Shown here one piece after another: positions 3,222 to 35,090 of a stretch of 64,000 bases of DNA. The stretch comes from Candidatus Omnitrophota bacterium (GTDB lineage: Bacteria; Omnitrophota; Gorgyraeia; Gygaellales; Profunditerraquicolaceae), in the NCBI GenBank assembly GCA_043814315.1, contig JBDRKE010000010.1, positions 66,896-130,895 of the forward strand, written 5' to 3'. The notes under the pieces are model-generated. The model worked only from the letters and a program-made list of their open reading frames with translations. It did not search any database and was not told the origin of the DNA. Every line of letters starts with the position of its first letter. The stretch's first letter is position 1. The position numbers and the translations under genes were made by a program.

Positions 3222-4499
3222 ATGCACGACTTTAAATATAAAAACAATCAGCTTTATTGCGAACAGGTTAAAGTCGAGGATTTAGCCAGGAAATTCGGCA
3301 CGCCTCTTTACGTCTACAGTTACCGTACTTTGATAGACCATTTCCTTAAACTGCAACATGCTTTTAAGAGCATAAATCCCCTGATCTGTTTCTCCGCAAA
3401 ATCCAATTCCAATCTGGCTATCCTGAAAGCCCTGGTGGATAAGGGGGCGGGCCTGGATATCGTTTCGGGGGGTGAGCTTTACAGGGCGCTTCGCGTGGGT
3501 TGCCCGCCCGAAAGAATCGTCTATGCTTCCGTCGGGAAAACCGAGCGCGAGATAGAAGAGGCTATCCGCCGAAGGATCCTTTTCTTTAATGTAGAAAGCA
3601 CAGCGGAATTGGAAAATATCAACCGTATAGCCAGAAGACTCAAACGGATTACGCGCCTGGCCATACGCATCAACCCGGATGTTGAGCCAAAAACCCACAG
3701 GTATATTACCACGGGAAAATTGACCAATAAATTCGGCATAGATTTCAGAAGCGCCTATCAGATTTTAATGGTGCGCCAAGCCCTCTCGCATGTGAAAATA
3801 TCCGGTTTGCATATCCACATCGGCTCTCAGATAACAGAAAGTGCTCCTTATGTTGCCGCTATGACCAAAATGGCAGCGTTTATTGAAAAACTGAGGAAGA
3901 AAGGAATAGGCCTTGAGTATCTTAATATCGGGGGCGGCCTGGGTATTGTCTATAATCACGAAACTCCGCAAACAGCCGTCCACTTTGCCGGTAAGGTCTT
4001 GCCTTTGCTTAAAAGGACAGGTTTAAAGATTATCTTAGAGCCAGGCAGATTCATTGTCGGCAATGCCGGTATCCTGGTTACAAAAGTGTTGTATCTTAAA
4101 TCGAGCCCTAGAAAGAAATTTGTCATTGTCGATGCGGGAATGAATGACTTGATCCGGCCTGCTTTGTATAACGCCTATCATCAGATTCTGCCCTTACGCA
4201 ATACGCAATACGCAATACGCAATACGCAGAAAGTCGATATAGTGGGCCCGATATGCGAAAGTGGCGATTTCTTTGCCAAAGAAAGGCCATTGCCTCAAGT
4301 CAAAGAAGGCCAGTATCTGGCAGTCATGAGTGCGGGCGCTTACGGTTTTAGCATGGCCTCTAATTATAATTCGCGAAAGAGGCCGCAGGAAATCATGGTC
4401 TTAAAGAATAAGTCCTTTGTCATAAGAAAAAGAGAGAACGAAAAAGATTTGGTTTGTAACGAAGTCATCCCGTCTTTTCTGTTTAAGGATACAGTATGA
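3222..4499 (+). CDS. lysA: diaminopimelate decarboxylase
   Basis: 425 aa. Conserved blocks GTPLYVY, FSAKSNSN and GPICESGD, within a lysine-operon context. Confidence 0.9.
   Translation: MHDFKYKNNQLYCEQVKVEDLARKFGTPLYVYSYRTLIDHFLKLQHAFKSINPLICFSAKSNSNLAILKALVDKGAGLDIVSGGELYRALRVGCPPERIVYASVGKTEREIEEAIRRRILFFNVESTAELENINRIARRLKRITRLAIRINPDVEPKTHRYITTGKLTNKFGIDFRSAYQILMVRQALSHVKISGLHIHIGSQITESAPYVAAMTKMAAFIEKLRKKGIGLEYLNIGGGLGIVYNHETPQTAVHFAGKVLPLLKRTGLKIILEPGRFIVGNAGILVTKVLYLKSSPRKKFVIVDAGMNDLIRPALYNAYHQILPLRNTQYAIRNTQKVDIVGPICESGDFFAKERPLPQVKEGQYLAVMSAGAYGFSMASNYNSRKRPQEIMVLKNKSFVIRKRENEKDLVCNEVIPSFLFKDTV
4196..4228 (+). repeat. heptanucleotide tandem repeat (acgcaat, about 4.7 copies) inside lysA
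   Basis: Read directly: acgcaat x4 followed by acgca. It is translated in frame as RNTQYAIRNTQ, just upstream of the conserved VDIVGPICESGD block. Confidence 0.9.
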
Positions 4500-5335
4500 A
4501 AAAAATAGAGTTTACCAAGATGGTCGCTTCCGGGAATGATTTCGTTGTTGCTGAGAAAAAACAACTATCCGCTATCCGCTATCCGCTATCCGCTATAGCT
4601 AATCAGATATGCAATAGGAAGTATGGTATAGGCGCTGACGGGTTGCTTATTCTTGAGAAAACAAAGGCAGCGGATATCAGGATGCGCGTGTTTAACGCCG
4701 ATGGTTCAGAAGCCGAGATGTGCGGGAATGGGGCAAGGTGCGTCGCCCTGTGGTTGAGTTCAAAGTTCCTGCCTGCCCGGCAGGCAGGCAAAGTTCATGG
4801 TTTAGAGTATAAAATCCAAACAAAAGCCGGCATCATTAAAGCCCAAGTCAATGGCGCATTAATAAGAATAAAGCTGACTGACCCCGCCGCTATAAAATTA
4901 AACGTACCCATCAGGATAAACAAGAAAATGCTGCACGTTAATTTTGTCAACACGGGGGTTCCTCATGCCGTGATATTTGTGGAGGGGTTGGATAAAATAG
5001 AAGTTGTAAGTTTGGGCAGGCAGGTGCGTTTCCATAAGGCGTTCTCGCCCGCAGGGGCCAATGTGGATTTTGTGGAAGCCTTAAATGATCATACTCTCGG
5101 ATTGAGAACATATGAGAGGGGTGTTGAGGATGAAACTCTGGCCTGCGGCACAGGAGCGGTTGCCTCGGCTTTAGCATACGTTATGCGCTACGCGCGAAAC
5201 GCCAAACAAATAAGAGTGCATACCCAGGGCAAGGAGATATTAAAAGTCTATTTTGAGAGAACAGGCCATAAATTAAAGAATGTTTGGTTAGAAGGAAAAA
5301 CGAAGGTTATTTGCAAAGGAGCGTATTATGTTTAA
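4496..5335 (+). CDS. dapF: diaminopimelate epimerase
   Basis: 279 aa. Contains SGNDFVV and the catalytic-Cys contexts MCGNGARC and ACGTGA. Confidence 0.9.
   Translation: MKKIEFTKMVASGNDFVVAEKKQLSAIRYPLSAIANQICNRKYGIGADGLLILEKTKAADIRMRVFNADGSEAEMCGNGARCVALWLSSKFLPARQAGKVHGLEYKIQTKAGIIKAQVNGALIRIKLTDPAAIKLNVPIRINKKMLHVNFVNTGVPHAVIFVEGLDKIEVVSLGRQVRFHKAFSPAGANVDFVEALNDHTLGLRTYERGVEDETLACGTGAVASALAYVMRYARNAKQIRVHTQGKEILKVYFERTGHKLKNVWLEGKTKVICKGAYYV
4565..4596 (+). repeat. heptanucleotide tandem repeat (ctatccg, about 4.5 copies) inside dapF
   Basis: Read directly: ctatccg x4 followed by ctat. It is translated in frame as LSAIRYPLSAI. Confidence 0.9.
4768..4788. repeat. 21-nt palindrome cctgcctgcc-c-ggcaggcagg inside dapF
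   Basis: The 10-bp arms are identical to the intergenic perfect palindrome at 10562..10581. It is flanked by the direct repeat caaagttc (4761..4768 and 4789..4796) and encodes part of FLPARQAGK. Confidence 0.85.
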
Positions 5336-6203
5336 AGGCTCGATGGTCGCCATCGTGACACCGTTTAAGAACGGGAAAGTAGACGAAAAGAAACTCAGGG
5401 ACCTAATTGACTTTCATATTAAGAGCGGCACAGCGGGGATTGTGCCTTGCGGCACAACCGGAGAATCCGCCACTTTGTCTTTTGAGGAACACGACCATGT
5501 TATTGAGGCTACCATTGATCAGGTAAGTCGCAGGGTCCCGGTCATTGCCGGCACAGGTTCCAATTCCACGGAAGAGGCGGTTATGCTGACGCGTCATGCC
5601 GCCAAAGCAGGCGCGGATGCGTCTTTGCAGGTGTCTCCTTATTACAACCGCCCCACACAGAAAGGCCTTTATGAACACTTTAAAGCTGTTGCGGATTCGG
5701 TTTCTATCCCGATCCTGCTTTATAATATCGCTTCAAGAACCGGGGTTAACATAGAGCCCGAGACAATAGCCAGGCTCACCCGTGATTGCAAAAATATTGT
5801 TGGCGTCAAAGAGGCTTCAGGAAGCCTGGATCAGATGTCGCGCATAAAATGGTTGTGTAAAGAGAATTTTGATCTTATCTCAGGAGATGACAGCCTGACT
5901 CTGCCCGTATTAAGCATTGCAGGCACAGGTGTTATTTCCGTCGTTGCCAATATTGTACCCAAAGATGTCGCTGGGCTGGTTCTTGAGTTTGAGAAAGGTA
6001 ATGTTAAAAGAGCCCAGGAGATCCATTTCAAATTATTACCCTTGATTAAAGCCATGTTTTTAGAAACAAATCCTATACCCGTTAAAACGGCTATGGGGCT
6101 ATTAGGGATGTGTGAACCGGATTTGAGGCTTCCCATGTGCCCCATGTCCGAGGAGAATCTGGAGAAACTGAAGGCAGCGCTGAAAGATTATGGATTACTG
6201 TGA
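5328..6203 (+). CDS. dapA: 4-hydroxy-tetrahydrodipicolinate synthase
   Basis: 291 aa. N-terminus GSMVAIVTPF, GTTGES, and the active-site Lys context GVKEASG. Confidence 0.93.
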   Translation: MFKGSMVAIVTPFKNGKVDEKKLRDLIDFHIKSGTAGIVPCGTTGESATLSFEEHDHVIEATIDQVSRRVPVIAGTGSNSTEEAVMLTRHAAKAGADASLQVSPYYNRPTQKGLYEHFKAVADSVSIPILLYNIASRTGVNIEPETIARLTRDCKNIVGVKEASGSLDQMSRIKWLCKENFDLISGDDSLTLPVLSIAGTGVISVVANIVPKDVAGLVLEFEKGNVKRAQEIHFKLLPLIKAMFLETNPIPVKTAMGLLGMCEPDLRLPMCPMSEENLEKLKAALKDYGLL

Positions 6204-6206
6204 GAA

Positions 6207-6364
6207 GCGTAAAACGCAAAGCGAAAAGCGTAAAACTAAAGCGGAAAACTTCCCGTTCGGCTATTAAATTTATTGCGGGATCCCGCTTTTCAGAAAATAG
6301 CTTAGCGGGAAAAACGTTTTGAGCTTACAACTTTAACTTTACGCTTTGCGCTTTGAGTTTTACG
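6207..6364. repeat. modular hairpin element (cgtaaaac/gcaaag arms, gcgggatcccgc core)
   Basis: The left arm gcgtaaaacgcaaagcgaaaagcgtaaaactaaagcg is roughly the reverse complement of the right arm ...ctttaactttacgctttgcgctttgagttttacg. The core holds the 12-nt palindrome gcgggatcccgc (6285..6296) and gcgggaaaaa. Confidence 0.8.
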
Positions 6365-6383
6365 TTAAAGCGAGGTGCTTGAT

Positions 6384-7094
6384 ATGATTAAGCTAGGTGT
6401 AGCCGGTGTTTGCGGAAGAATGGGGAGGCGTATATTTGAGTTGGCCTCTGTGGATAGGGATTTTGAGTTGACCCTTGCCCTTGAGAAAAAAGGTACGCCC
6501 ATGATTGGCCGGGATATGGGTAAGCTTAAGATATCCTCCAGTCCCGACGGCCTATTCCTTATTGATTGTTTTATAGATTTTACTACTCCCGAGGCAAGCG
6601 AGATTCATCTAGGGTATGTGGCAAAATACAAGAAACCCGTTGTCCTGGGCACAACCGGATTAAACGAAGCTCAATTAAAAGAAATAGAAGAGGTATCTAA
6701 AGTTGTCCCCGTGGTATTCTCACCGAATATGGCTGTCGGTGTAAACGTTTTGTTTGCCCTTTTGCCTGAAATAGCTAAGAGATTAGGTTTGGATTACAGC
6801 GTGGAGATCATAGAGGCCCACCATAAGGCGAAAAAAGACGCTCCTTCAGGAACGGCCAAGAAGCTGGGGCAGATTTTAGCGGATACCGCTAAAAAAGAAA
6901 TTCCTATCCATGCCATCCGGCTGGGGGATATTATCGGTGACCATACGGTCATATTCTGCGGTAACTCTGAGCGCATCGAAATAAAACATCAGGCGCACTC
7001 ACGCGATTTGTTCGCCCTGGGTGCTTTAAAGGCAGCGAAATGGATTGTTGGTAAACCTGCCGGTTTGTATTCGATGCAGGATGTGTTAAGATAG
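6384..7094 (+). CDS. dapB: 4-hydroxy-tetrahydrodipicolinate reductase
   Basis: N-terminus MIKLGVAGVCGRMG (Rossmann fold), EAHHKAKKDAPSGTA and HQAHSRDLFALGAL. The ATG at 6384 is preferred over the GTG at 6375 because of the upstream gcgagg Shine-Dalgarno (SD) sequence. Confidence 0.85.
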   Translation: MIKLGVAGVCGRMGRRIFELASVDRDFELTLALEKKGTPMIGRDMGKLKISSSPDGLFLIDCFIDFTTPEASEIHLGYVAKYKKPVVLGTTGLNEAQLKEIEEVSKVVPVVFSPNMAVGVNVLFALLPEIAKRLGLDYSVEIIEAHHKAKKDAPSGTAKKLGQILADTAKKEIPIHAIRLGDIIGDHTVIFCGNSERIEIKHQAHSRDLFALGALKAAKWIVGKPAGLYSMQDVLR

Positions 7095-12946: not shown

Positions 12947-12980
12947 ACAAAAGACAACTTTTTTGAAAGCGAGCGTTCCT

Positions 12981-15854
12981 ATGCATAATCATGACGCTAT
13001 TGTTATCCATGGTGCTAAAGAGCACAACCTTAAAAATATAAATCTTATCCTACCGCGCCAGAGACTGATTGTTGTTACAGGGTTATCTGGTTCGGGTAAA
13101 TCAAGCCTCGCCTTTGATACCATCTACGCGGAAGGCCAGCGTCGATTCGTGGAGAGCCTTTCCAGCTACGCGCGTCAGTTTTTAGAACAATTACAGAAGC
13201 CCGATGTCGAATATATCGGCGGATTATCGCCGACCATTGCCATTGAACAGCGTACAGCAGGCGGCAATCCGCGTTCCACGGTAGCCACCCAAACCGAGAT
13301 CTACGATTATTTAAGATTGCTTTTTGCCCGCATCGGAAGGGTTTATTGTTATCGGTGTCAACGGCCGATCAACAGACAAAGTTCCCAAGAGATTGTTGAT
13401 AGAATCATGGCCATGCCGGCCCAGACAGAGATGCAAATACTAGCTCCTGTTATCTCAGGAAGAAAAGGGGAATATAAAGAGATCTTCAGTTGGATTCAAA
13501 AATCAGGGTTCCTGCGTTGTCGCGTTGACGGTAAGATTTACGAATTGCCGTTAGATTTAAAGTTAGCAAAATATAAAATGCATCATATCGAGGTGGTCGT
13601 AGATAGATTAGTCCTAAGCCCGCAAGTAAAGAAAAGACTTACGGATTCCATCGAGACGGCACTTAAAGTAGGCAAAGGCACGGTTATTATTAGCCAGCTA
13701 GCCAGTTACCCAATTACCCTATCGAACCGGCAAACCGGCCAATCGGCCAACCGGCCAACCGGCAAACCGGCAAATCGGCCAACCGACTTAGTCTTCAGCG
13801 AACAGTACGCCTGCACAAAATGCGGGATCAGCTATGCACAAGTCCAGCCGCGCAATTTTTCTTTTAATTCACCCTACGGCGCCTGCCCGGAGTGCCACGG
13901 CCTTGGCACAAAACTAGAGTTTGATCCTGACTTAGTTATTTCGGACAGAAGCAAATCCATCCAGGAAGGAGCGCTTGAGCCCTGGAAGAGGGGAGGCAGG
14001 GGCTACATCCTCTATTATCGCTGGCTCATCCGGGAGCTGTCTTACAAGATGCATTTTGATTTAGACACTCCGTTTAAGAACCTGAGAAAGGAAGTGCAGA
14101 AGGCCGTACTTTTTGGGACGGATGAAGAGGTCAACGGCAAGCCCTTCGAAGGCGTGATTCCCCATCTGGAAAGGTTATTCCGGGAAACGGATAGCGATTA
14201 TTTAAAAGAAGAGATATCCAAATTCATGTCGAGCCTGAGTTGTTCCTTGTGCCAGGGGGCCAGACTTAAAAAGGAAAGCTTGTCTGTGAAGATTCAAGGC
14301 AAGAATATTTGGCAGATCGCCCAGATGTCTATCAAAGAAGCCAGAGGCTTCTTTAAAGGTCTGGATTTAAGCGAAAAAGAAAAAACGATTGCGCATCAGG
14401 CCTTGAAAGAGATTGTCCAGAAATTACAGTTTTGCGTGGATGTGGGGTTGGAGTATTTAACGCTGGACAGAAGAAGCTCGACGCTTTCCGGCGGAGAGGC
14501 GCAGAGGATTCGCCTGGCCACTCAGGTTGGATCCGGCCTTGTCGGAGTGTTGTATGTATTGGATGAGCCCAGTATCGGCCTGCACCAAAGGGACAACAAT
14601 AAATTGCTTTCGACATTGGAGGCGTTACGGGATCTGGGCAACACGTTGATTGTTGTGGAGCACGACGAGAGTACAATTCTTTCCTCTGACTATATCGTGG
14701 ATTTGGGGCCGGGAGCTGGCCGGCACGGCGGGGAAGTCGTATTCTGTGGCACAAAGGAAGAATTATTAAGGCATCCGGAGTCGCTGACGGCGAAATATTT
14801 AAGGCGCGAATTAAAGATCGAGATCCCTAAGAAGAGAAGGCCCTGGCAAGACAGGAAATTCCTTGTGGTTACCGGAGCCAGAGAGCACAATCTTAAAAAC
14901 ATAGAAGTGAAATTTCCTCTGGGTCTTTTTATCTGCGTGACGGGAGTTTCTGGTTCGGGCAAGTCCACTCTGGTCGATGAGATCCTGTTCAGAAGCCTCG
15001 CGCAAAAACACTACAAATCCAAAGATAAACCGGGGCTTCACGATAAGATTACAGGTATAGAGCTTATCGATAAAGTGATTGTCGTGGATCAGTCTCCCAT
15101 AGGCAGGACTCCCCGCTCGAATCCCGCAACCTACACAGGAATGTTTGGCCCTATCAGGGATTTATTCAGCAAGCTTCCCGAAGCCAAGGTGCGCGGATTT
15201 AAACCCGGCAGATTTTCTTTTAACGTAAAAGGGGGCCGTTGCGAGGCGTGCTCCGGGGATGGCATCAAGAAAATCGAGATGCATTTTCTTCCGGATGTGT
15301 ATGTGAAGTGCGATATCTGCAAGGGGAACAGGTTCAACGAATCCACCCTGGAAGTCAAATTCAAAGGCCAATCCATAGCGGATGTCTTAAGGATGACCGT
15401 AGAGGAGGCCTTGGACTTATTTGGCAATGTGCCAAAGATAAAGAACACGCTGGGCTATCTTTATGACGTAGGCTTGGGGTATATGACGCTGGGGCAGGCC
15501 GCCACAACGCTTTCCGGCGGAGAGGCACAGCGCATTAAGTTATCTAGCGAGCTGAGCAAGCGCTCTACGGGAAAGACCCTGTACATTTTGGATGAGCCGA
15601 CAACGGGATTGCATTTTGCCGATGTAGACAAGCTGCTTTGCGTGCTCCAAAGGTTAGTCGACAAAGGCAACACCGTGGTCGTTATCGAACATAACTTAGA
15701 AGTCATTAAATGTGCTGATTATATTATCGATCTTGGGCCTGAGGGGGGAGATAGAGGCGGAGAATTGGTGGTAGCGGGGACTCCCGAAGCGTTGCTTCGC
15801 TGCAAGGCGTCGTTTACGGCCGATGCCCTGAGAAAGGTGTTGAAGAGGCGCTGA
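12981..15854 (+). CDS. uvrA: excinuclease ABC subunit A
   Basis: N-terminus MHNHDAIVIHGAKEHNLKNI, two Walker A motifs (GLSGSGKSS and GVSGSGKST), two LSGGE signatures and zinc-finger Cys pairs. The ATG at 12981 is preferred over the longer ORF from 12894. Confidence 0.95.
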   Translation: MHNHDAIVIHGAKEHNLKNINLILPRQRLIVVTGLSGSGKSSLAFDTIYAEGQRRFVESLSSYARQFLEQLQKPDVEYIGGLSPTIAIEQRTAGGNPRSTVATQTEIYDYLRLLFARIGRVYCYRCQRPINRQSSQEIVDRIMAMPAQTEMQILAPVISGRKGEYKEIFSWIQKSGFLRCRVDGKIYELPLDLKLAKYKMHHIEVVVDRLVLSPQVKKRLTDSIETALKVGKGTVIISQLASYPITLSNRQTGQSANRPTGKPANRPTDLVFSEQYACTKCGISYAQVQPRNFSFNSPYGACPECHGLGTKLEFDPDLVISDRSKSIQEGALEPWKRGGRGYILYYRWLIRELSYKMHFDLDTPFKNLRKEVQKAVLFGTDEEVNGKPFEGVIPHLERLFRETDSDYLKEEISKFMSSLSCSLCQGARLKKESLSVKIQGKNIWQIAQMSIKEARGFFKGLDLSEKEKTIAHQALKEIVQKLQFCVDVGLEYLTLDRRSSTLSGGEAQRIRLATQVGSGLVGVLYVLDEPSIGLHQRDNNKLLSTLEALRDLGNTLIVVEHDESTILSSDYIVDLGPGAGRHGGEVVFCGTKEELLRHPESLTAKYLRRELKIEIPKKRRPWQDRKFLVVTGAREHNLKNIEVKFPLGLFICVTGVSGSGKSTLVDEILFRSLAQKHYKSKDKPGLHDKITGIELIDKVIVVDQSPIGRTPRSNPATYTGMFGPIRDLFSKLPEAKVRGFKPGRFSFNVKGGRCEACSGDGIKKIEMHFLPDVYVKCDICKGNRFNESTLEVKFKGQSIADVLRMTVEEALDLFGNVPKIKNTLGYLYDVGLGYMTLGQAATTLSGGEAQRIKLSSELSKRSTGKTLYILDEPTTGLHFADVDKLLCVLQRLVDKGNTVVVIEHNLEVIKCADYIIDLGPEGGDRGGELVVAGTPEALLRCKASFTADALRKVLKRR
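13725..13786 (+). repeat. degenerate octanucleotide tandem repeat (cMaaYcgg, about 7.5 units) inside uvrA
   Basis: aaccgg caaaccgg ccaatcgg ccaaccgg ccaaccgg caaaccgg caaatcgg ccaaccga, translated as NRQTGQSANRPTGKPANRPT. The same unit occurs non-coding at 51302..51332 and flanks the mtaB insert. Confidence 0.9.
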
Positions 15855-28008: not shown

Positions 28009-29237
28009 TGCCAAAATTTTTCTACATTGCCAGGAATAAGCTCGGCAAGAAAGATACCGGAGCCGAAGAGGCTGCCACACAGGAAGAAGCCATTCTTAGG
28101 TTGCAGTCTAGGGATCTGGTGGTCATCAGCATCCTACCTGCCTTTAAAGAATCCGGGGTCAACCAGGAAGTCATATCAAAGGCGAAGTTTAAACCAAAGC
28201 ACTTCCGTATTTCAGGGGAAGACCTGGTTCTTTTCTGCAGGCAGTTAGCCACGCTTTTAGGCGCAGGCGTAACGATCTTGAAGAGTCTGGATATTATTTC
28301 GCAACAGGTATCCAGCCGCAGGCTTTATGAGGTTATCAAAGAGTTACAGAAAAATATGGAAGCAGGATTAAGTTTTCATGAAGCTATATCAAAGCACCGT
28401 TTGATATTTTCTGAATTGTGGGTTAATCTTGTGGAAAGCGGGGAGGCCTCCGGAAATTTAGCCATGGTTTTGAGCCGCCTGGCCAGCTACTTAGAGAGAA
28501 ATGCGGCGTTTAAGAAAAAGATTGTTTCTGCTTTGATTTACCCTACCATCTTGATGCTGGTCGGGACAGGCGCACTTTTGTTCTTGACCGTTAAGATTAT
28601 ACCTACCTTTGCCGTCTTATTTCAGGGTTTCGATGTAAAGATGCCCTTTTTGACATCCGTGCTTATAGCCGTAAGCGGCTTTATGAGAAAATACCTGCTC
28701 ACTATTTTTGTCTTAGGGATTATCGGGTTCTTCATTTTTAAAAATTATATTTCTACAAAGCAGGGCCGAAGAGCCTTTGAGAAAATTTTGTTCAATCTTC
28801 CGGTCTTCGGAGAATTTTTTCGTGTGCTGATTGTGGAGCGCTTCACTTCTGAAATGGCCACTCTCGTTGAAAGTGGCGTGCCCATATTGTATTCTTTGGA
28901 AATCACGGAGCATAGCGTCGGAAATCTGACGCTGGGGGAGATCATCGGCAGAATCAAAGACGATGTGCGCGAAGGCAAACCTTTGTCCCAGCCGCTGGAC
29001 AGAAGCGGATTCTTCGAGCCTATGGCCGTACAAATGGTGACGATCGGAGAAGAAATCGGAGAATTATCCAGTATGTTTAAGAAATTGAATTCTTTTTATC
29101 AGGAATACGTGGATACGTTTTTGACCCGGTTTACGGTCATGTTTGAGCCGATAATGCTTATTTTTATGGGTGTCGTGATCGGCATGATGGTGGTGGGGAT
29201 GTTTTTACCTATATTCCAGCTTGTCCAGATACGCTAG
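28008..29237 (+). CDS. GspF/PilC family platform protein
   Basis: 409 aa with two T2SSF repeats and three TM segments. The start overlaps the ATPase stop. Confidence 0.92.
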   Translation: MPKFFYIARNKLGKKDTGAEEAATQEEAILRLQSRDLVVISILPAFKESGVNQEVISKAKFKPKHFRISGEDLVLFCRQLATLLGAGVTILKSLDIISQQVSSRRLYEVIKELQKNMEAGLSFHEAISKHRLIFSELWVNLVESGEASGNLAMVLSRLASYLERNAAFKKKIVSALIYPTILMLVGTGALLFLTVKIIPTFAVLFQGFDVKMPFLTSVLIAVSGFMRKYLLTIFVLGIIGFFIFKNYISTKQGRRAFEKILFNLPVFGEFFRVLIVERFTSEMATLVESGVPILYSLEITEHSVGNLTLGEIIGRIKDDVREGKPLSQPLDRSGFFEPMAVQMVTIGEEIGELSSMFKKLNSFYQEYVDTFLTRFTVMFEPIMLIFMGVVIGMMVVGMFLPIFQLVQIR

Positions 29238-29257
29238 GTTCCATACGCATAATTTAT

Positions 29258-29285
29258 TTGACTTGATTGTTTTTTGTGATATTCT
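29258..29285 (+). promoter_or_regulatory. sigma70-like promoter candidate (extended -10) for the pilin operon
   Basis: TTGACT (29258..29263), a 16-nt spacer ending in TGa, then TATTCT (29280..29285). This predicts a leader of roughly 275 nt before the pilin ATG. Confidence 0.45.
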
Positions 29286-29401
29286 AAATCAAGAGAGAGG
29301 AGGTGGTAGGTAGAGTAAATTTTTTGTTATTTCGAAAATGGTGTTATTGAAAAGTCGAAGGGCAGGTTTATCCCTCGCACCTGACAAGCCATAGATGGGT
29401 G

Positions 29402-29557
29402 CTCGGGATAATTTGCTGACCCGTAAGAGCGGGCAAATTAATTCGTTAACCCGTTATAGCTGGCGAATAATTTACTGAGCGGTTATAGCGGGGAAATTAA
29501 TCCGCTGACTAGTTATAGCAGACGGATAATTTGCTGACCCGTAATAGCGGGCAAATT
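29402..29557 (+). repeat. tandem array of five ~30-nt hairpin units directly upstream of a pilin SD
   Basis: Each unit has the form aatt-X5-...gtta/tagc...-X5'-aatt, and the outer stems differ between units (ttgc/gcaa, ttcg/cgaa, tccg/cgga). The first and last units (29406.. and 29524..) are identical except for one base. The array ends 1 nt before the aggagg SD. Confidence 0.85.
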
Positions 29558-29568
29558 AGGAGGAAAAG

Positions 29569-29964
29569 ATGAAAAGAGGTTTTACGTTACTAGAACTGAT
29601 CATTGTCATCATCGTCGTCGGTATATTAGCTACCCTTGGTTTTGTCCAGTATACAAGCATGATTGAAAAAGGCCGAAAAGCAGAGGCCAGAAGCATTTTG
29701 GGGACGTTACGTCAGTTAGAGGTTGTGCGGTATCAGGAAACAGGAGCTTATAGTAATTTGGCTGGCTTAAGTACGGGTGTACCTGACGGCGCATGTGCAG
29801 CCACACATTATTTTTTCTACGCCTGCGCCGCTGGAACAGGCACCTGCACAGCTACTAGATGTATAGGTGTTGTAGGTAAACAGCCAGGCGTTCCTGCCGC
29901 AGATGTCTATACCATTACGTTGAGTGTTGACGGAAATTTCAACGGAACAGGCAATTGGCAGTAA
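29569..29964 (+). CDS. type IV pilin-like protein (paralog 1)
   Basis: MKRG|FTLLELIIVIIVVGILA prepilin motif. The C-terminal domain has four Cys. Confidence 0.85.
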   Translation: MKRGFTLLELIIVIIVVGILATLGFVQYTSMIEKGRKAEARSILGTLRQLEVVRYQETGAYSNLAGLSTGVPDGACAATHYFFYACAAGTGTCTATRCIGVVGKQPGVPAADVYTITLSVDGNFNGTGNWQ

Positions 29965-29988
29965 GGATATAAAAAAGACAGCATTATC

Positions 29989-30399
29989 TTGGAGAGAAAG
30001 AAGAAGAAAAAAGGCTTTACAATGTTAGAGCTAGTTATAGTCATTGTGGTCGTGGCTATACTAGTGAGTTTAGGGCTTGTTCAGTTTACTTCCGTGATGG
30101 AAAAGGGCCGTAAAGCAGAAGCCAGAAGCATCCTGGGGACGCTGCGTCAGTTAGAGATTTCGCGATACGAAGAGATGCTCACGTATAGTAATTTAGCAGG
30201 ATTAGGCATAGCTGTACCTGACGGCGCATGTGCAGCCACGCATTATTTTTTCTACGCCTGCGCCGCTGGAACAGGCACCTGCACGGCTACTAGATGTATA
30301 GGTGCTGTAGGTAAACAGCCAGGCGTTCCTGCCGCAGATGTTTATACCATCACGCTGGATGTTAACGGAAATTTCTCGGGAACAGGCAATTGGCAGTAA
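29989..30399 (+). CDS. type IV pilin-like protein (paralog 2)
   Basis: TTG start with leader MERKKKKKG|FTMLELVIVIVVVAILV. The last ~186 nt are nearly identical to paralog 1. Confidence 0.85.
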   Translation: MERKKKKKGFTMLELVIVIVVVAILVSLGLVQFTSVMEKGRKAEARSILGTLRQLEISRYEEMLTYSNLAGLGIAVPDGACAATHYFFYACAAGTGTCTATRCIGAVGKQPGVPAADVYTITLDVNGNFSGTGNWQ

Positions 30400-30417
30400 G
30401 GACAGGAGAAAAAGCCG

Positions 30418-30831
30418 ATGAAGAAAACTGGCGTTACTTTGCTGGAAATGGTGATTACCGTTATGCTCATCGGTATTTTAGGTACACTGGGCTTTATCCA
30501 ATACGGGAATTACCGAGAAGAGGCTTTGGGCAAAGAGGCGCGCGCGAATTTGAGATTGATTATAGCTGCGCAAAGGATCTACAAGATAAAAACAAGCGCT
30601 TACTTCCCTGCTGCCGGAGGTACCGAGAGTAACACAGGCACCATTAATGATAATCTGAAAGTGCTTTTGTCCACTTTAGCGGGTTCTGGCCGGACATGGG
30701 ATTATCTGGTGACCTCTTCAGGCGGTTCAACCTGCGTTCAGGCAACGAGATTTAATGGGCCTGCAAAAACCTGGAGATTCCGCAATAATGAACCTGGCGG
30801 AGATCCTCTTGAAAATGCCACTTGTCCTTAA
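30418..30831 (+). CDS. type IV pilin / pseudopilin-like protein
   Basis: MKKTG|VTLLEMVITVMLIGILG. The C-terminus is similar to ORF 18..419. Confidence 0.8.
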   Translation: MKKTGVTLLEMVITVMLIGILGTLGFIQYGNYREEALGKEARANLRLIIAAQRIYKIKTSAYFPAAGGTESNTGTINDNLKVLLSTLAGSGRTWDYLVTSSGGSTCVQATRFNGPAKTWRFRNNEPGGDPLENATCP

Positions 30832-30836
30832 CCTTA

Positions 30837-31268
30837 ATGCCTATGTGTGAAAAAAGTATAATGGCCTTTACCCCGCACTTCATAAAGCCTCGTCTTAAAT
30901 CCTGCACCCCTCTTGTGCGGAATTTAGGACGATGTGCGGGGTTTACCTTGATTGAAATCTTAGTTTCTACGGTGCTCATTTCTTTGGTTTTAGTTGGGTT
31001 AGGGAATCTTTTTCTGGGCGGAAAAAAATGGATGCAGCACCGCCGCTACCAAATCACTGCCGGCCAAATAGCCAAGGTTTTTTTAGACCCTTTGCAGATG
31101 GATGTCCGTCAGGACCAATGGGGAAGTAACTGTTTAAGCAGCGGCATAGGTTGCCCAGGCACCCAAAATGTGGATGGCATTACCTACACTCCTGTTTATA
31201 ATATTTCGGCTGTTGGGAATTTGCGTCGCGTCCAGTTGACTATTAGCTGGAGCGAGCCCACCTCTTAG
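30837..31268 (+). CDS. minor pseudopilin-like protein with an unusually long leader
   Basis: Contains ..LGRCAG|FTLIEILVSTVLISLVLVGL. The start is uncertain (TTG 30822, ATG 30837 or ATG 30861), which gives a 27-40-aa leader. Confidence 0.6.
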   Translation: MPMCEKSIMAFTPHFIKPRLKSCTPLVRNLGRCAGFTLIEILVSTVLISLVLVGLGNLFLGGKKWMQHRRYQITAGQIAKVFLDPLQMDVRQDQWGSNCLSSGIGCPGTQNVDGITYTPVYNISAVGNLRRVQLTISWSEPTS

Positions 31269-31862
31269 ATGCCCGAAAATAAAAAAATTCCCGGAGTCAC
31301 TCTTATAGAATTAATTATCGCTATTGTCTTGATTTCATTCATTGTCTTAGGGATTGCGAATATTGATACCTTCTTCCATTTTCATGTCCTGAATGCGGAT
31401 CGCCGCATTAAGATTCAATATGAAACCTCCATTTCCTTAGAACACATGACGAAGGAGATGGTAAGGGCCATAGGAGATACCAATAAGCCTCCTGTGACCT
31501 TGCTTTTGCCTTCTGGTTCCATCTACCGCGGCATTAGGGTCTGGGTGGATGAAAACCAAAACGGAATTCAGGATACTTACCCCACGGACCGTGAAATCGG
31601 TTATCTCTACCAACAGGGCTCGAGTACGATTCAGTATTATAACCCCTGCCGAGGCCCGAGCTGCAACTGGGCAGGAAGCCTGCTGAATGAGACCCTATCT
31701 CGACAGATTGCCGAGTGTACCTTTACCTGGTCTGCGAGCACTGGAAACTTCGTTGATGTCAACATCACCTCGCGCCACAATACCTCCGTGGCCTCTTCTG
31801 TGGATAATCCCGAAATGAACATGATCGCCCGTATTCAAATGCCTGCCGTATCTACCCATTGA
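31269..31862 (+). CDS. minor pseudopilin-like protein (GspJ/PilW-like size)
   Basis: MPENKKIPG|VTLIELIIAIVLISFIVLGI. 197 aa. Confidence 0.7.
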   Translation: MPENKKIPGVTLIELIIAIVLISFIVLGIANIDTFFHFHVLNADRRIKIQYETSISLEHMTKEMVRAIGDTNKPPVTLLLPSGSIYRGIRVWVDENQNGIQDTYPTDREIGYLYQQGSSTIQYYNPCRGPSCNWAGSLLNETLSRQIAECTFTWSASTGNFVDVNITSRHNTSVASSVDNPEMNMIARIQMPAVSTH

Positions 31863-32111
31863 TTTTTTTACAAAGCCCCTCTTGGCATCCGCAAGAATTT
31901 ATTTGCCCGCCTGCAGAAACTATGGTAAATTAATATGACGAAAGGGAAATATTCTTGATGAGAAAGAATTTTTTAGTCCTGCGCCCTAGATAAAAGATTA
32001 GGGTGGGCTTAGGACAAAATTTTTCGAATAAAAAAATTTCAGTACTTCCCCCTTAAATAAAAGCTTAAGGTAGGGGAAGTACAAAAAATTCTTGCTCAGC
32101 AAGAATTTTTT

Positions 32112-32187
32112 GGGGCAGTAGCTCAGCTGGGAGAGCGTCGCGTTCGCATCGCGAAGGTCGGGAGTTCGATCCTCCTCTGCTCCACCA
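32112..32187 (+). tRNA. tRNA-Ala (anticodon CGC), CCA encoded
   Basis: The cloverleaf was folded by hand. Acceptor stem ggggcag/ctgctcc includes the G3:U70 Ala identity pair. The anticodon loop ttCGCat and T-loop ttcgatc are present, with discriminator A followed by CCA. Confidence 0.93.
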
Positions 32188-32420
32188 AAATTTTCCAGCC
32201 TCTCGCCCTTTGGGCTCGGGATAATTCGTCGACCGATAAGGTATAACGGGCGAATTAACAAGGAAAATTTTGGTGGCACTTGAACGAGCGCGGGCGAGGC
32301 AGCCCCTCGGCCGTTGGCCTCGGGATAATTCACCGATATGCAATAGCGGGTGAATTAACAAGCGAGGCAGCGAGTGAAAGTGCATACTTCCTTGATTTTT
32401 GATAAGGAAAAATTTGGTGG
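32188..32420 (+). repeat. two ~105-nt repeat units downstream of tRNA-Ala, each with a ctcgggataatt...aattaacaag hairpin
   Basis: The hairpins at 32213..32262 (aattcg/cgaatt stem) and 32318..32366 (aattcacc/ggtgaatt stem) share the ctcgggataatt lead-in seen at 29402. In addition, ggaaaa(a)tttggtgg at 32262 and 32406 is an inverted copy of the tRNA 3' end caccaaaattttcc. Confidence 0.8.
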
Positions 32421-32428
32421 CCTCCTCT

Positions 32429-33532
32429 ATGAAAAATATATTCAGATTGCCTTTGGCTGTTGTTTTATTTTCGGCAATCCTGACGGCCTGTTTCTATTGG
32501 CCGTTGATTTCAGCCGAGGCGCCCCTTAAAGAAGGCCTTTTTTATGAGAAGCTGAAAGGTAATACTGTTCAGTGTCATATCTGTCCCCGTCATTGTATTA
32601 TTCCCGCAGGCAGGCGGGGATTCTGCGGCGTCAGAGAGAATCGCGACGGCATTCTGTACGCCTTATCCTACGGAAAACTGGTTTCCGCCCATATTGACCC
32701 CATTGAAAAAAAGCCTTTGTTTCATTTCTATCCTGCCACTACCGCTTTTTCCATTGCCACGGCTGGCTGTAATTTAAGATGCAAATTCTGTCAAAACTGG
32801 GAGATCTCCCAGAGAAAACCCGAGGAGGTCAATTATAGTTATATTGAGCCCCGGGATTTAATAGAGAAGGTTATGGAATCCGGTTCTCTCACCATTGCCT
32901 ACACGTATACGGAGCCCACCATATTTTACGAATATATGCTGGAGACGGCAAAGCTGGCTAAAAAAGAAGGGATCAAAAATATTATGCACTCCTGCGGGTA
33001 TATCAACGAGCCGCCCTTGCGGGAGTTGATTCCGTATCTGGATGCCGCTAACATTGATTTAAAAGGCTTTAGCGACGATTATTATCAGAAACTTTCGGAA
33101 GCAAGCCTTGAGCCCGTACTTAACACGTTGAGGATATTAAAAGAAGAAGGGGTGCATCTGGAGATAACCAATTTGCTCTTGCCTGGATTTAACGATGATC
33201 CCGAAACGATAGCCAAGATGTGCCTCTGGATAAAAGAAAATCTGGGTGCGGATACGCCGCTGCATTTTTCCCGCTTTTTTCCGATGTATAAATTGTTAAG
33301 CTTAAACCCTACGCCTGTGCAGTCTTTAGAAAGGGCGCGCCAGATCGCGTTGGATAGCGGCCTGAAATACGTCTATATAGGGAATCTGGCAGGGCATCCG
33401 GCTGAGAATACCTATTGCCCCAAATGCAAACAGCTTTTGATTGAACGTAAGGGCTACTTTATCCTGAAAAACAATATTCAGGACGGAAAGTGCAAATACT
33501 GCGGAGAGAAGATTGAAGGAGTCTGGCAGTAA
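32429..33532 (+). CDS. AmmeMemoRadiSam system radical SAM enzyme
   Basis: Contains CHICPRHCIIPAGRRGFCGVRENRDG and the CNLRCKFCQNWE (CxxxCxxC) cluster, and is adjacent to a Memo/AMMECR1 gene. It carries an extra hydrophobic N-terminus (MKNIFRLPLAVVLFSAILTACFYWPLISA). Confidence 0.85.
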   Translation: MKNIFRLPLAVVLFSAILTACFYWPLISAEAPLKEGLFYEKLKGNTVQCHICPRHCIIPAGRRGFCGVRENRDGILYALSYGKLVSAHIDPIEKKPLFHFYPATTAFSIATAGCNLRCKFCQNWEISQRKPEEVNYSYIEPRDLIEKVMESGSLTIAYTYTEPTIFYEYMLETAKLAKKEGIKNIMHSCGYINEPPLRELIPYLDAANIDLKGFSDDYYQKLSEASLEPVLNTLRILKEEGVHLEITNLLLPGFNDDPETIAKMCLWIKENLGADTPLHFSRFFPMYKLLSLNPTPVQSLERARQIALDSGLKYVYIGNLAGHPAENTYCPKCKQLLIERKGYFILKNNIQDGKCKYCGEKIEGVWQ

Positions 33533-33547
33533 AATGAAAACACGGTT

Positions 33548-33686
33548 CAAATCCCAAATCCAAAATCCCAAATCCCAAACAAATCCCAAACACCAATTTC
33601 CAATATTTCAAACTTTAATGTTTCGGTCATTGGTCATTGGGGCATTGGTGCTTATTTGGAATTTGGTGCTTGGTACTTGGAATTTA
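33548..33686. repeat. modular hairpin element (aaatcccaaa.. / ..ttggaatttggtg arms)
   Basis: A/C-rich arm at 33548..33614 and complementary G/T-rich arm at 33626..33686. The right arm lies within the reading frame of the downstream gene. Confidence 0.8.
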
Positions 33687-35090
33687 CATGCGCAAGATAT
33701 TAAAGAACCAAACGTGGCTGGTGCTTTTTATCCGGCTAACGCCGAAGAGTTGTCCCGCATGATAGACGGTTTTCTAGTTGCGGCAACGCCTGAGTTGATC
33801 GAAGGGGACATATTCGTTTTGATTTCTCCTCATGCCGGATATGGTTATTCTGGCCAGACTGCCGCTTACGGTTATAAGTTGGTGAGGGGCAAGCCCTATA
33901 AAACCGTCATTGTTTTAGGCTCAAGCCACCATTATGGTTTTAGCGGTGCCTCTGTATATGCGCAAGGATCATTGCGCACGCCTCTGGGGGATGTGGCCGT
34001 AGATGAAGCATTCGCACAGAAACTCCTTAATAAGACTGAGGAGATATTTTTTGATCCCAGCGCCTTTGAGAAGGAACACTCCGTAGAAGTGCAATTGCCT
34101 TTTTTGCAAAAGGCGCTCTCTGATTTTAAAATCGTTCCCATTGTTATGGGCGATTGCACTCTTTCCACGTGCCAGAATCTGGCAAATCTGCTTAAAGAAG
34201 CCATCGGCGAGCGTCAGGATGTTCTTGTGGTGGCATCCACCGATATGTATCACGGCTACGATTACGATGAGGCAGATTCCGTGGATAATCTGACCCTATC
34301 TTTTTTAAAAAATATGGATGCCCAGGGTTTATATTATGGGTTACGCGAAGGCAAGCTTCAGCTTTGCGGGGGGTTTGGCGTGGTTTCTGCTATGATTTTG
34401 GCCAAAGAGTTAGGCCACCAAAAATTGAGCATTTTAAAACACACAAATTCCGCTATTGTTACCGGTGAAAAGGTTAAAGGACGCTGGACCGTCGGCTATG
34501 TCAGCTGTGTTATAGACCAGGAAAAAGGAGGAGAGGCCTTGCTAAACAAAGACCAGAGAAAACGATTGATTGAGATCGCCAGAAGCTCTATTGAAACATA
34601 CCTAAAAACCAATAAGAAATTGGAAGTCATGGTTCAGGACCCCGCGTTGTCGAAAAATATGGGAGCTTTTGTGACTCTTCATGACCGTGCAGGGTTACGG
34701 GGCTGCATCGGTAATCTTGTCGCAAGGCAGCCGCTTTATCTGACCGTCAGGGACATGGCTGTTCAGGCGGCTGTGGATGACCCGCGTTTTTCTCCTCTTA
34801 CGCTATCGGAACTTGGAGAGGTCGAGATTGAGATTTCAGTATTAACCCCCTTGGAAAGGATAGTTTCAGCAGAGGAAATACAATTAGGCACTCACGGCGT
34901 CCTGGTTATAAAAGGCCCCAACAGCGGCGTCTTCCTGCCGCAGGTCGCCGCAGAGACCGGTTGGTCCAAAGAAGAATTCCTGTCCAACCTTTGTAGTCAT
35001 AAGGCAGGCCTTTTGCCTGATGCCTGGAAGGATAAGTCAACTGAAATCTATACATTCACTGCCGAAGTATTTTCGGAAAGCAATTATTAG
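33618..35090 (+). CDS. fused AmmeMemoRadiSam protein B (Memo-like) and protein A (AMMECR1)
   Basis: The Memo part has AGAFYPANAEEL and ISPHAGYGYSG. The AMMECR1 part has GAFVTLHDRAGLRGCIGN. The start is uncertain: ATG 33618 gives a hydrophobic N-terminus encoded by the repeat arm, and downstream TTG/GTG codons are alternatives. Confidence 0.85.
   Translation: MFRSLVIGALVLIWNLVLGTWNLHAQDIKEPNVAGAFYPANAEELSRMIDGFLVAATPELIEGDIFVLISPHAGYGYSGQTAAYGYKLVRGKPYKTVIVLGSSHHYGFSGASVYAQGSLRTPLGDVAVDEAFAQKLLNKTEEIFFDPSAFEKEHSVEVQLPFLQKALSDFKIVPIVMGDCTLSTCQNLANLLKEAIGERQDVLVVASTDMYHGYDYDEADSVDNLTLSFLKNMDAQGLYYGLREGKLQLCGGFGVVSAMILAKELGHQKLSILKHTNSAIVTGEKVKGRWTVGYVSCVIDQEKGGEALLNKDQRKRLIEIARSSIETYLKTNKKLEVMVQDPALSKNMGAFVTLHDRAGLRGCIGNLVARQPLYLTVRDMAVQAAVDDPRFSPLTLSELGEVEIEISVLTPLERIVSAEEIQLGTHGVLVIKGPNSGVFLPQVAAETGWSKEEFLSNLCSHKAGLLPDAWKDKSTEIYTFTAEVFSESNY

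Follow-up and report, generated by a model that had tools for sequence, protein, structure and literature searches.

The tRNA-Ala(CGC) gene of a Candidatus Omnitrophota bacterium (contig JBDRKE010000010.1) is followed by an AmmeMemoRadiSam radical SAM gene, and the 240 nt between the two genes are occupied by structured elements that extend to just 5' of the radical SAM ATG (32429). The window is the whole stretch of 64 kb that was analysed (positions 66,896 to 130,895 of the contig), and coordinates without a locus name refer to it; other loci are named L001, L002 and so on. Three module types are distinguishable and well supported: a trailer hairpin H, an irregular stem B, and a pair of hairpins with conserved flanks, CAG-P1-P2-ACAAG, below called the motif. 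The motif, of ~63 nt, is a previously uncatalogued, strongly conserved Y-shaped RNA/DNA module of Omnitrophota. The identification of the modules as a lineage-specific family of structured repeats in stable-RNA trailers and spacers seems secure. The features are as follows; R1 is the covariance model of the motif.

29371..29563, + strand: third copy of the family, in the 5' untranslated region (5'UTR) of the major pilin gene (R1 matches of 40.8, 28.6 and 16.1 bits; repeat families D2 and D3; fold z = -4.24)
32112..32187, + strand: tRNA-Ala(CGC) with encoded CCA (ARAGORN; Rfam tRNA match, 62 bits)
32182..32196, + strand: 5' arm a of the trailer hairpin H, CCACCAAAAUUUUCC (inverted repeats I6 and I8; fold of 32180-32278)
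32196..32262, + strand: motif copy U1, in the loop of H (R1, 69.9 bits, E = 5e-16; fold; covariation)
32262..32276, + strand: 3' arm a'1 of H, GGAAAAUUUUGGUGG, perfect complement of 32182-32196 (inverted repeat; fold)
32276..32299, + strand: 5' strand of host stem B, GCACUUGAACGAGCG CGGGCGAGG (fold of 32274-32388, z = -4.55)
32300..32362, + strand: motif copy U2, in the apical loop of stem B, with P1 at 32304-32324 and P2 at 32326-32357 (R1, 84.7 bits, E = 6e-20; fold z = -2.58)
32363..32383, + strand: 3' strand of host stem B, CGAGGC AGCGAGUGAAAGUGC (fold; comparison with relatives)
32384..32405, + strand: linker ending in UUGAUAA, a degenerate 5' arm and GAUAA loop of a second H-like unit (direct repeat D7; GACAAGGAAAATTTTGAGGG in L002)
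32406..32420, + strand: second inverted copy a'2, GGAAAAAUUUGGUGG, 14/15 complementary to the tRNA trailer (inverted repeats)
32429..33532, + strand: AmmeMemoRadiSam radical SAM gene (Pfam Radical_SAM; a 100% identical NCBI protein is named AmmeMemoRadiSam enzyme)

The modules downstream of tRNA-Ala and their relatives

The 12-mer CTCGGGATAATT occurs in the window exactly at 29402, 32215 and 32319, all on the + strand. By chance 0.01 matches are expected, and a count of three was reached in none of 100 shuffles. Thus the lead-in that the original prediction saw in both the units after tRNA-Ala and the pilin leader is real. In U1 and U2 the order is the same: CTCGGGATAATT, then a stem-loop, then AATTAACAAG, which ends at 32262 and 32362, respectively. 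The conserved unit is larger than this earlier description, as a small GC hairpin, P1, stands 5' of GGGAUAAUU. From its base, P1 has 3-4 bp, then a UC/UC internal loop, a further 4 bp and a loop of 3 nt; P2 has the form UAAUUC...GAAUUA, and the tail is ACAAG. U1 accordingly reads CAG, P1 at 32200-32220 (3+4 bp around the UC/UC internal loop), P2 at 32222-32258 (UAAUUCG...CGAAUUA), ACAAG.

The tRNA 3' end together with its trailer, CCACCAAAATTTTCC (32182-32196), has two inverted copies, as was also claimed earlier: at 32262-32276 (15/15) and at 32406-32420 (14/15). The former is the true 3' arm of H, to which the last six nucleotides of tRNA-Ala (CCACCA) contribute. The latter is the 3' arm of a second, degenerate H-like unit that is present in L001 and L002 too; direct repeat D7 relates 32255-32277 to 32399-32421 with 87% identity. 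U1 fills the loop of the 15-bp helix formed by the tRNA end and trailer with its first inverted copy. The fold of 32180-32278 is a three-way junction with a minimum free energy of -38.8 kcal/mol and a z-score of -4.5.

U2 stands in the apical loop of stem B, where GCACUU (32276-32281) pairs with AAGUGC (32378-32383) and the GA-rich segments between are able to form tandem G.A pairs. The conserved flanks of this stem, GCACTTGAACGAGCG and AGCGAGTGAAAGTGC, are identical in L016, L044 and L055, and a variant form is found in L002, L009 and L038. The description of the region as two ~105-nt repeats holds for the spacing, the units starting 104 nt apart (repeat D4), but is a first approximation only: in a model-anchored alignment U1 and U2 are 81% identical, their host stems differ, and the unit is larger.

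Four contigs, L001-L004, encode radical SAM proteins 84-85% identical to that of the window. Although the radical SAM context is common, the intergenic content differs. The AmmeMemoRadiSam operon lies directly 3' of tRNA-Ala in four of the five related loci (the window, L001, L003 and L004); L002 starts at a contig end, and upstream there is only a tRNA-like 3' fragment. L001 has the trailer hairpin and one motif copy immediately 5' of the ATG. L003 and L004 have no elements, and the ATG stands ~20-25 nt past the tRNA, which implies a tRNA-mRNA co-transcript. L002 shares stems H and B with the window, each capped by a plain GACAA loop (CCACCAAAAATTTAC-GACAA-GTAAATTTTTGGTGG and GCACTC...GACAA...GAGTGC), and U2 is missing from its stem B. 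When the two are aligned, the window equals L002 plus two insertions, placed exactly 5' of the (G/A)ACAAG loops. Since the insertions are in separate hairpin loops, U1 and U2 did not arise by one local tandem duplication, and the alignment points to separate occupants of the two loops. Similarly, L058 and L061 share a near-identical H hairpin and differ by the presence of one motif; the extra copy resembles the copy in the adjoining unit, which suggests gene conversion between repeated arms.

Distribution, covariation and genomic context of the family

The motif was sought by pattern in genomes, one genome per species, and 40 loci were returned. Ten contain true copies with P1, P2 and the ACAAG tail, eight of them in metagenome-assembled genomes titled Omnitrophota or Omnitrophica and two in those titled Planctomycetales; the remaining 30 are structureless chance matches from other phyla. 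Model R1 was built from 17 copies, and a metagenome scan added 22 loci. In the non-redundant set of Omnitrophota genome and metagenome loci R1 finds 49 copies at E < 1e-4. In these copies 95.7% of the stem cells are paired, and 12 of the 17 pairs have compensatory changes. None of 500 shuffles reached the observed values, and slid controls are 31-58% paired. The loop and junction bases of the motif and the lower helix of P2 are invariant, and the unpaired junction bases CAG and ACAAG are kept across genomes that are >30% divergent elsewhere in the motif. With 49 copies and covariation, the outcome that the original prediction had named as fatal to it, no other loci and one tandem duplication without structural conservation, has not come about.

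Canonical copies at different tRNA loci, on different contigs of one genome (GWF2_43_52, STC_8), are 87-94% identical, as against a mean of 69% between genomes; the earlier suggestion that the hairpin structure has propagated is borne out by this difference. In the window, R1 matches are confined to 29371-29563 and 32196-32362, and there is one other hairpin with a GACAA loop, which is the chance level. No Rfam 15 family corresponds to the motif: the window gives only tRNA at the gathering threshold, and a search of 29200-32500 at E <= 10 is empty at the motif. In eight related loci the Rfam matches are confined to tRNA, one group I intron and one c-di-GMP-I riboswitch. R1 has no match in 75 viral loci fitting a loose sequence pattern, and thus no phage link was found.

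Hairpin H is an AU-rich hairpin of 13-16 bp. It follows 25 of the 54 tRNA and transfer-messenger RNA (tmRNA) genes in the fetched Omnitrophota loci, a count that includes redundant contigs. Its 5' arm begins within the last 2-6 nt of the tRNA or tmRNA gene. The loop is mostly GACAA, with the variants GAUAA, GGCAA, UUAA and inverted UUGUC. The hairpin is followed by CAC or by AUGC, the start of stem B. In 17 H helices from 17 loci 99.2% of the pairs are Watson-Crick, and 12 of the 15 pairs show compensatory changes; the outer pairs follow the terminal nucleotides of each tRNA, CCA, CCG or CAC. Comparison of the flanks of other tRNA genes, as had been proposed, thus identifies the inverted copies in the window as arms of a conserved trailer hairpin.

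Stem B is GC/GA-rich and irregular, GCACUYRAGCGAGCG ... AGCGAGYGRAGUGC. The motif replaces the GACAA loop of H or B as a ~63-nt hairpin pair, so that a three-way junction results. The 3' arm may be repeated 2-5 times per array, the matching 5' arms being degenerate (L005, L038, L059, L062). Adjoining units in these arrays are up to 98-100% identical, and perfect tandem units are present in L059 and L062; because of this identity, the extra copies of the 3' arm are ascribed to recent tandem duplication.

Copies of the motif stand 3' of, or between, genes of tRNA-Lys, Asp, Cys, Leu, Val, Tyr, Gly, Ser, Arg and Ala. A copy is found 52 nt past the tmRNA gene in L050, and the 16S-23S spacer of L063 contains copies on both sides of tRNA-Ile. 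In all informative cases the copies share the strand of the adjoining tRNA, tmRNA or rRNA-spacer genes. A tRNA or tmRNA gene on the same strand lies within 700 nt upstream of 26 of the 49 copies. Nearly all of the other 23 are cut off by a contig end, follow an intron-split tRNA-Tyr not called by ARAGORN, or belong to an rRNA spacer; several of those at contig ends still show a tRNA 3' fragment or a bare trailer hairpin at the edge. No copy among the 49 has a tRNA on the opposite strand as its sole neighbour. The link between the hairpin family and tRNA flanks, proposed from the window, therefore extends to many tRNA genes, tmRNA and the 16S-23S spacer of other Omnitrophota, always on the same strand. 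Clear exceptions are the window pilin 5'UTR, L066, and L059, where an array with up to four motif copies opens with an H hairpin but has no tRNA.

Where a copy lies in the rRNA spacer or separates two tRNAs of one cluster, it must be transcribed. Canonical terminators, a GC-rich hairpin followed by a U-tract, are found 3' of the arrays in L047, L025 and L066; hence the arrays are inside the transcription unit and H is not a terminator. In the window itself, a consensus scan of the + strand at 32188-32429, from tRNA-Ala to the radical SAM ATG, gives no promoter-like or terminator-like site. An intrinsic terminator is rejected here, since what follows the AU-rich H is CAC or AUGC. The original prediction had allowed for a termination structure; the lack of a U-tract, the terminators placed 3' of arrays elsewhere and the lack of a promoter-like site of the downstream gene's own speak against it.

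Several loci have further features in or near the arrays. In L038 an open reading frame (ORF) of 277 aa with a Bro-N domain (5879-6712, minus strand) splits the repeat array 3' of tRNA-Ser, and a c-di-GMP-I riboswitch (4417-4511, minus strand) lies further 3' of this ORF and of the array. In L031 a free-standing LAGLIDADG ORF (4501-5175) is situated in the spacer from tRNA-Cys to tRNA-Leu, directly after a module of B plus motif. In the region 110-1000 of L044 a 200-aa ORF with only a weak helix-turn-helix match lies between tRNA-Thr and tRNA-Tyr; a group I intron (663-930; Rfam Intron_gpI, 95 bits) apparently interrupts the anticodon loop of the tRNA-Tyr. In L066 a cluster of four palindromes of the classical REP-like type, which carry a GTAG head (GTAGTTGCCCGATTTATCGGGC and its inverted partners), lies at about 12950-13130 (minus strand), just 5' of the motif copy that lacks a visible tRNA.

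The pilin leader in the window begins with a P1 with a long loop (29371-29407), and five P2-type hairpins follow in tandem at intervals of ~30 nt. The fifth abuts the Shine-Dalgarno box GGAGG (29559-29563) of the pilin gene, the ATG of which is at 29569. A consensus scan gives a promoter-like site upstream of the leader, at 29258-29285. The orthologous pilin leaders of L001 and L004 have no hairpin array. Besides the window pilin gene, one other junction of P2, Shine-Dalgarno box and ATG was found, in L054: on the minus strand at 1150-1271 a motif copy stands 5' of half a P2 hairpin (AAUAGCGGGUGAAUUA), which directly adjoins the GAGGG-N8-AUG of an ORF. The N-terminus of this ORF seems to resemble those of pilus or secretion ATPases. 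The adjacent pilin genes of the window (29569-29964 and 29989-30399) form a tandem duplication: over 300 nt they are 78% identical, and their cysteine-rich C-terminal segments are the same. An exact-protein look-up gave no record for the pilin (29569-29964) or for the last pilin-like gene (31269-31862).

Co-transcription of the radical SAM gene with tRNA-Ala is probable, the repeat elements lying in the 5' leader of the gene. The 3' end of a'2, GGUGG, stands 8 nt 5' of the ATG and by this position is likely to be the Shine-Dalgarno box of the gene; L001 and L002 keep the pattern AAGGAAAATTT(G/T)G(R)GG, with the ATG after another 8 nt. The operon consists of the radical SAM gene and a fused Memo-AMMECR1 gene; together with tRNA-Ala it occupies 32112-35090 in the window, 769-3580 in L003 and 2526-5337 in L004.

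The 250 nt upstream of tRNA-Ala (31863-32111) contain several further hairpins. A perfect 15-bp palindrome at 32082-32112 has a 3' arm ending on the first base of the tRNA, and a similar hairpin is found at 31947-31974. A further pairing, GUACUUCCCC...GGGGAAGUAC, is situated at about 32040-32080, and a GUCCU...AGGAC hairpin (about 31975-32015) resembles one 5' of tRNA-Ala(UGC) in the rRNA spacer of L063. The sequence TTGCCC-17 nt-TAAATT (31903-31931) is conserved in L003 and L004 and may be the tRNA promoter. Two minus-strand ORFs of 111 and 106 aa (31998-32333 and 32065-32385) overlap the tRNA and the repeat modules in antisense; both are almost certainly spurious, though an annotation might take them for genes.

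Candidate functions and alternative explanations

On balance, and with considerable reserve, we regard the elements as co-transcribed structured trailer modules of stable-RNA units in an Omnitrophota clade that act as RNA. A role at the RNA level is favoured because of the strict co-orientation, the necessary co-transcription and the conserved unpaired bases. The modules would be transcribed within the tRNA precursor or within a 5' leader. H would clamp the 3' end of the tRNA together with its trailer in one long helix, and the subsequent stems would fold on their own. The stems may be double-stranded determinants of processing or protection and may insulate the tRNA from the downstream mRNA, whereas the invariant nucleotides of the motif junction and loop would be the binding site of a putative factor. 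Processing, stability and protein binding are the candidate functions, and by their position at the tRNA 3' end the modules may have a role in tRNA processing. The arrays would expand, contract and become homogenised by tandem duplication and gene conversion between repeated arms; such turnover would explain why close relatives have 0, 1 or 2 copies.

A number of observations weigh against this explanation. Firstly, the case for function at the RNA level comes down to strand bias and location. Secondly, there are no G.U pairs at all in 255 cells of the H helix, and some loops are inverted, UUGUC for GACAA; in this respect H resembles the maintenance of palindromes at the DNA level more than selection at the RNA level. 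In the stems of the motif G.U pairs (23) only modestly exceed A.C (16), which makes a weak test of RNA-level selection. Thirdly, five of the six lower P2 pairs never vary, and thus the lower P2 helix is not proven by covariation. Fourthly, the later a' copies in L005, L038 and L059 have no complementary 5' arm, and their conservation may come only from recent duplication. The loci were retrieved with patterns derived from the motif, and the sample is biased toward canonical copies. Finally, L003 and L004 do without the elements, which are thus dispensable at this locus.

The absence of G.U pairs from H, the inverted loops, the modest excess of G.U in the motif and the dispensability fit a different explanation, namely, selfish palindromic repeats of the REP/BIME, BOX or MITE-like kind that act at the DNA level, multiply in tolerant, highly transcribed non-coding DNA, with a preference for hairpin loops of the GACAA type already there, and have no host function. 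The strand bias and the conserved bases would then reflect the needs of the copying mechanism. This explanation is possible, if somewhat unlikely. It accounts for presence and absence among close relatives, for insertions exactly at hairpin loops, for the nesting of modules and for the 87-94% identity between loci within a genome. The perfect H palindromes agree with it, as do the pilin 5'UTR copy outside the tRNA context, the L059 array with H and no tRNA, and the fact that arrays attract other selfish inserts, the Bro-N and LAGLIDADG ORFs. However, neither terminal inverted repeats nor a target-site duplication were found. The motif ends, CAG... and ...ACAAG, are not inverted repeats, and a MITE or transposon is rejected on this ground. 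The apparent target-site duplication CGAGGCAG flanking U2 belongs to the host, being the two strands of stem B, and in other loci is a complementary pair, GCGAGGC/GCCGAGC. Of the ORFs and called genes that were inspected beside the elements, none stood out as a transposase or RAYT-type gene. The orientation relative to the stable-RNA gene is strict, copies in the 64 kb are present only at the tRNA flank and in the pilin leader, and the single-stranded CAG and ACAAG are conserved across divergent genomes.

A bolder form of the functional interpretation, which we consider doubtful, is that CAG-P1-P2-ACAAG is a new functional RNA class of stable-RNA transcripts, either a putative nuclease or RNA-binding protein site combined with a sponge that also controls translation of pilus genes, or a self-propagating module homing into the GACAA pentaloops of transcribed hairpins. 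If true, either form would be a mechanism without a described bacterial counterpart.

A platform for an RNA-binding protein is a rather improbable candidate. The P2 hairpins of the pilin leader would serve translational control, and the copies in stable-RNA trailers would be titrating decoys, analogous to CsrB/CsrA or to a tRNA 3' external transcribed spacer (3'ETS) sponge. The invariance of the loop and junction bases and of the lower P2 helix is compatible with this, and the hairpins come in multiples: the pilin 5'UTR has five of them, and L059 as many as four copies of the motif. The 3' arm of P2 abuts a Shine-Dalgarno box and ATG twice (the window pilin gene and L054), and highly expressed stable-RNA transcripts would suit a sponge. 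However, no candidate protein was identified, there are only the two abutting cases, and the orthologous pilin leaders of L001 and L004 lack the hairpins.

Still less can be said for a locus-specific riboregulator, in which the tRNA trailer (CCACCAAAAUUUUCC) pairs either with a'1 or with a'2 bearing the Shine-Dalgarno box and so couples translation of the radical SAM gene to 3' processing of tRNA-Ala. The complementarities of 15/15 and 14/15, the end of a'2 8 nt before the ATG and the tRNA adjacency kept in four of the five related loci speak for it, but the sequence near the Shine-Dalgarno box in L001 and L002 is not complementary to their own tRNA trailers, and L003 and L004 have no such pairing. 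Moreover, repeated a' copies are a general by-product of array duplication and occur also without a downstream gene. We consider it very improbable.

Virtually no weight is left for a single local tandem duplication, chance similarity or integrase attachment (att) site relics at the tRNA, although the units start 104 nt apart and tRNA and tmRNA genes are classic integration sites: these readings are refuted by the distribution, context and covariation of the family, with the motif at many other loci and genomes and also in an rRNA spacer, U1 and U2 81% identical in different host stems, and tRNA-end copies that are inverted, not direct, as a remnant of recombination would have them. Neither the called genes and ORFs on either side of the tRNA locus (window and L001-L004) nor those seen beside the elements include an integrase. 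An integrase att duplication is likewise rejected for the locus itself, where only 240 nt lie before the next gene and the neighbours are pilins and the AmmeMemoRadiSam operon.

Some other identities were considered and rejected. T-box riboswitches have a stem I with a specifier loop and a T-box bulge that pairs in trans with the NCCA end of a tRNA; for such an identity (UGGUGG against ACCA) there is no Rfam match at E <= 10, and the pairing is not conserved; since the complementarity runs 9 nt into the trailer, the pairing is in cis with the tRNA precursor and not the trans pairing of a T-box. Integron attC sites have inverted core sites, R''/L'' and L'/R' (RYYYAAC ... GTTRRRY), and stand in cassette arrays next to intI; here AATTAAC misfits RYYYAAC, the opposite end has no GTTRRRY partner, and no intI-like gene was called in the fetched loci. 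By eye, CUGA, stem and CAAA of the pilin hairpins lack G8, A9 and G12 of a hammerhead; in stem B the bulge and the register of the G.A pairs misfit a kink-turn or loop E; and no other small ribozyme was matched.

If the preferred interpretation, modules acting as RNA in stable-RNA transcripts, is right, the family is an entry point to the maturation and protection of stable RNA in Omnitrophota, an uncultured phylum of mostly ultra-small bacteria whose RNA biology is little known. It is a structured element absent from Rfam, and it is found at sites where the spacers of bacteria are as a rule short and unstructured. A dedicated factor that binds or cleaves the element, if there is one, would add a new component to tRNA processing or to the post-transcriptional regulation of pilus genes. 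The arrays are also a natural example of hairpin modules that nest and become homogenised across a genome. For annotation, the elements account for unusually long tRNA spacers and for spurious ORFs on the minus strand.

Comparison with known systems

REP/BIME of proteobacteria and BOX of Streptococcus pneumoniae are short modular extragenic repeats that form hairpins, are co-transcribed and vary in copy number. The Omnitrophota modules are similar in being nested hairpin repeats, co-transcribed, variable in copy number between relatives and homogeneous within a genome. They differ in that neither a GTAG head nor inverted REPIN pairs are present and a RAYT gene was not seen; they are not dispersed in the 64-kb window, they have a strict same-strand association with stable RNA, and they carry a two-hairpin cap with a three-way junction. 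REP/BIME elements associated with RAYT are defined by an imperfect palindrome of 20-40 nt with a GTAG-type 5' head, dispersed copies that are often inverted pairs, and a RAYT in the genome. This identity is rejected for the motif, which has no GTAG head and in the window is present at two sites only, with all copies co-oriented.

There is some likeness to the antitermination signals boxB and boxA of rRNA operons and lambdoid phages; in the rRNA type a single-stranded boxA beside a boxB hairpin is bound by NusB/NusE. The boxB loop of phage P22 is GACAA, and boxA of the E. coli rrn operons is UGCUCUUUAACAA. The modules have the same GACAA pentaloop, the motif tail ...UUAACAAG is like the 3' part of boxA, and the sites are untranslated parts of stable-RNA operons, including the 16S-23S spacer after a tRNA. 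However, of the boxA consensus (GCUCUUUAACAA-like) only 7 nt, UUAACAA, match, these are mostly paired in P2, and the U-rich core of boxA is absent.

The literature on RNA motifs of Omnitrophota and on repeats 3' of tRNA genes yielded nothing relevant save one case. In Methanopyrus kandleri a palindrome, CGTTA-N9-TAACG, lies ~10 bp 3' of about half of the tRNA genes and was speculated to be a signal of 3' maturation, which is unproven (PMC5217627). This is the nearest published precedent found for a lineage-specific palindrome after tRNA genes. It differs from the Omnitrophota modules in being archaeal, single, short and clear of the tRNA end, with no modules or arrays.

By position the family belongs with the transcribed spacers of tRNA operons, the 3'ETS and internal transcribed spacers (ITS): in the window, the tRNA clusters, the tmRNA locus and the 16S-23S spacer loci the modules lie in such a spacer or trailer. 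Spacers of this kind are released by processing and can have a function of their own; the 3'ETS of E. coli glyW-cysT-leuZ is a sponge of small RNAs. The likeness is that of non-tRNA sequence transcribed with tRNAs, between them or before the terminator. Unlike the known examples, the spacers of Omnitrophota are 100-800 nt long and are built from conserved modules common to unrelated tRNA, tmRNA and rRNA-spacer loci, and unlike the glyW-cysT-leuZ 3'ETS the modules have no known base-pairing target or sponge activity. Structured extragenic repeats and stable-RNA spacers are already known as such, and there is a moderate chance that the mechanism in Omnitrophota is new.

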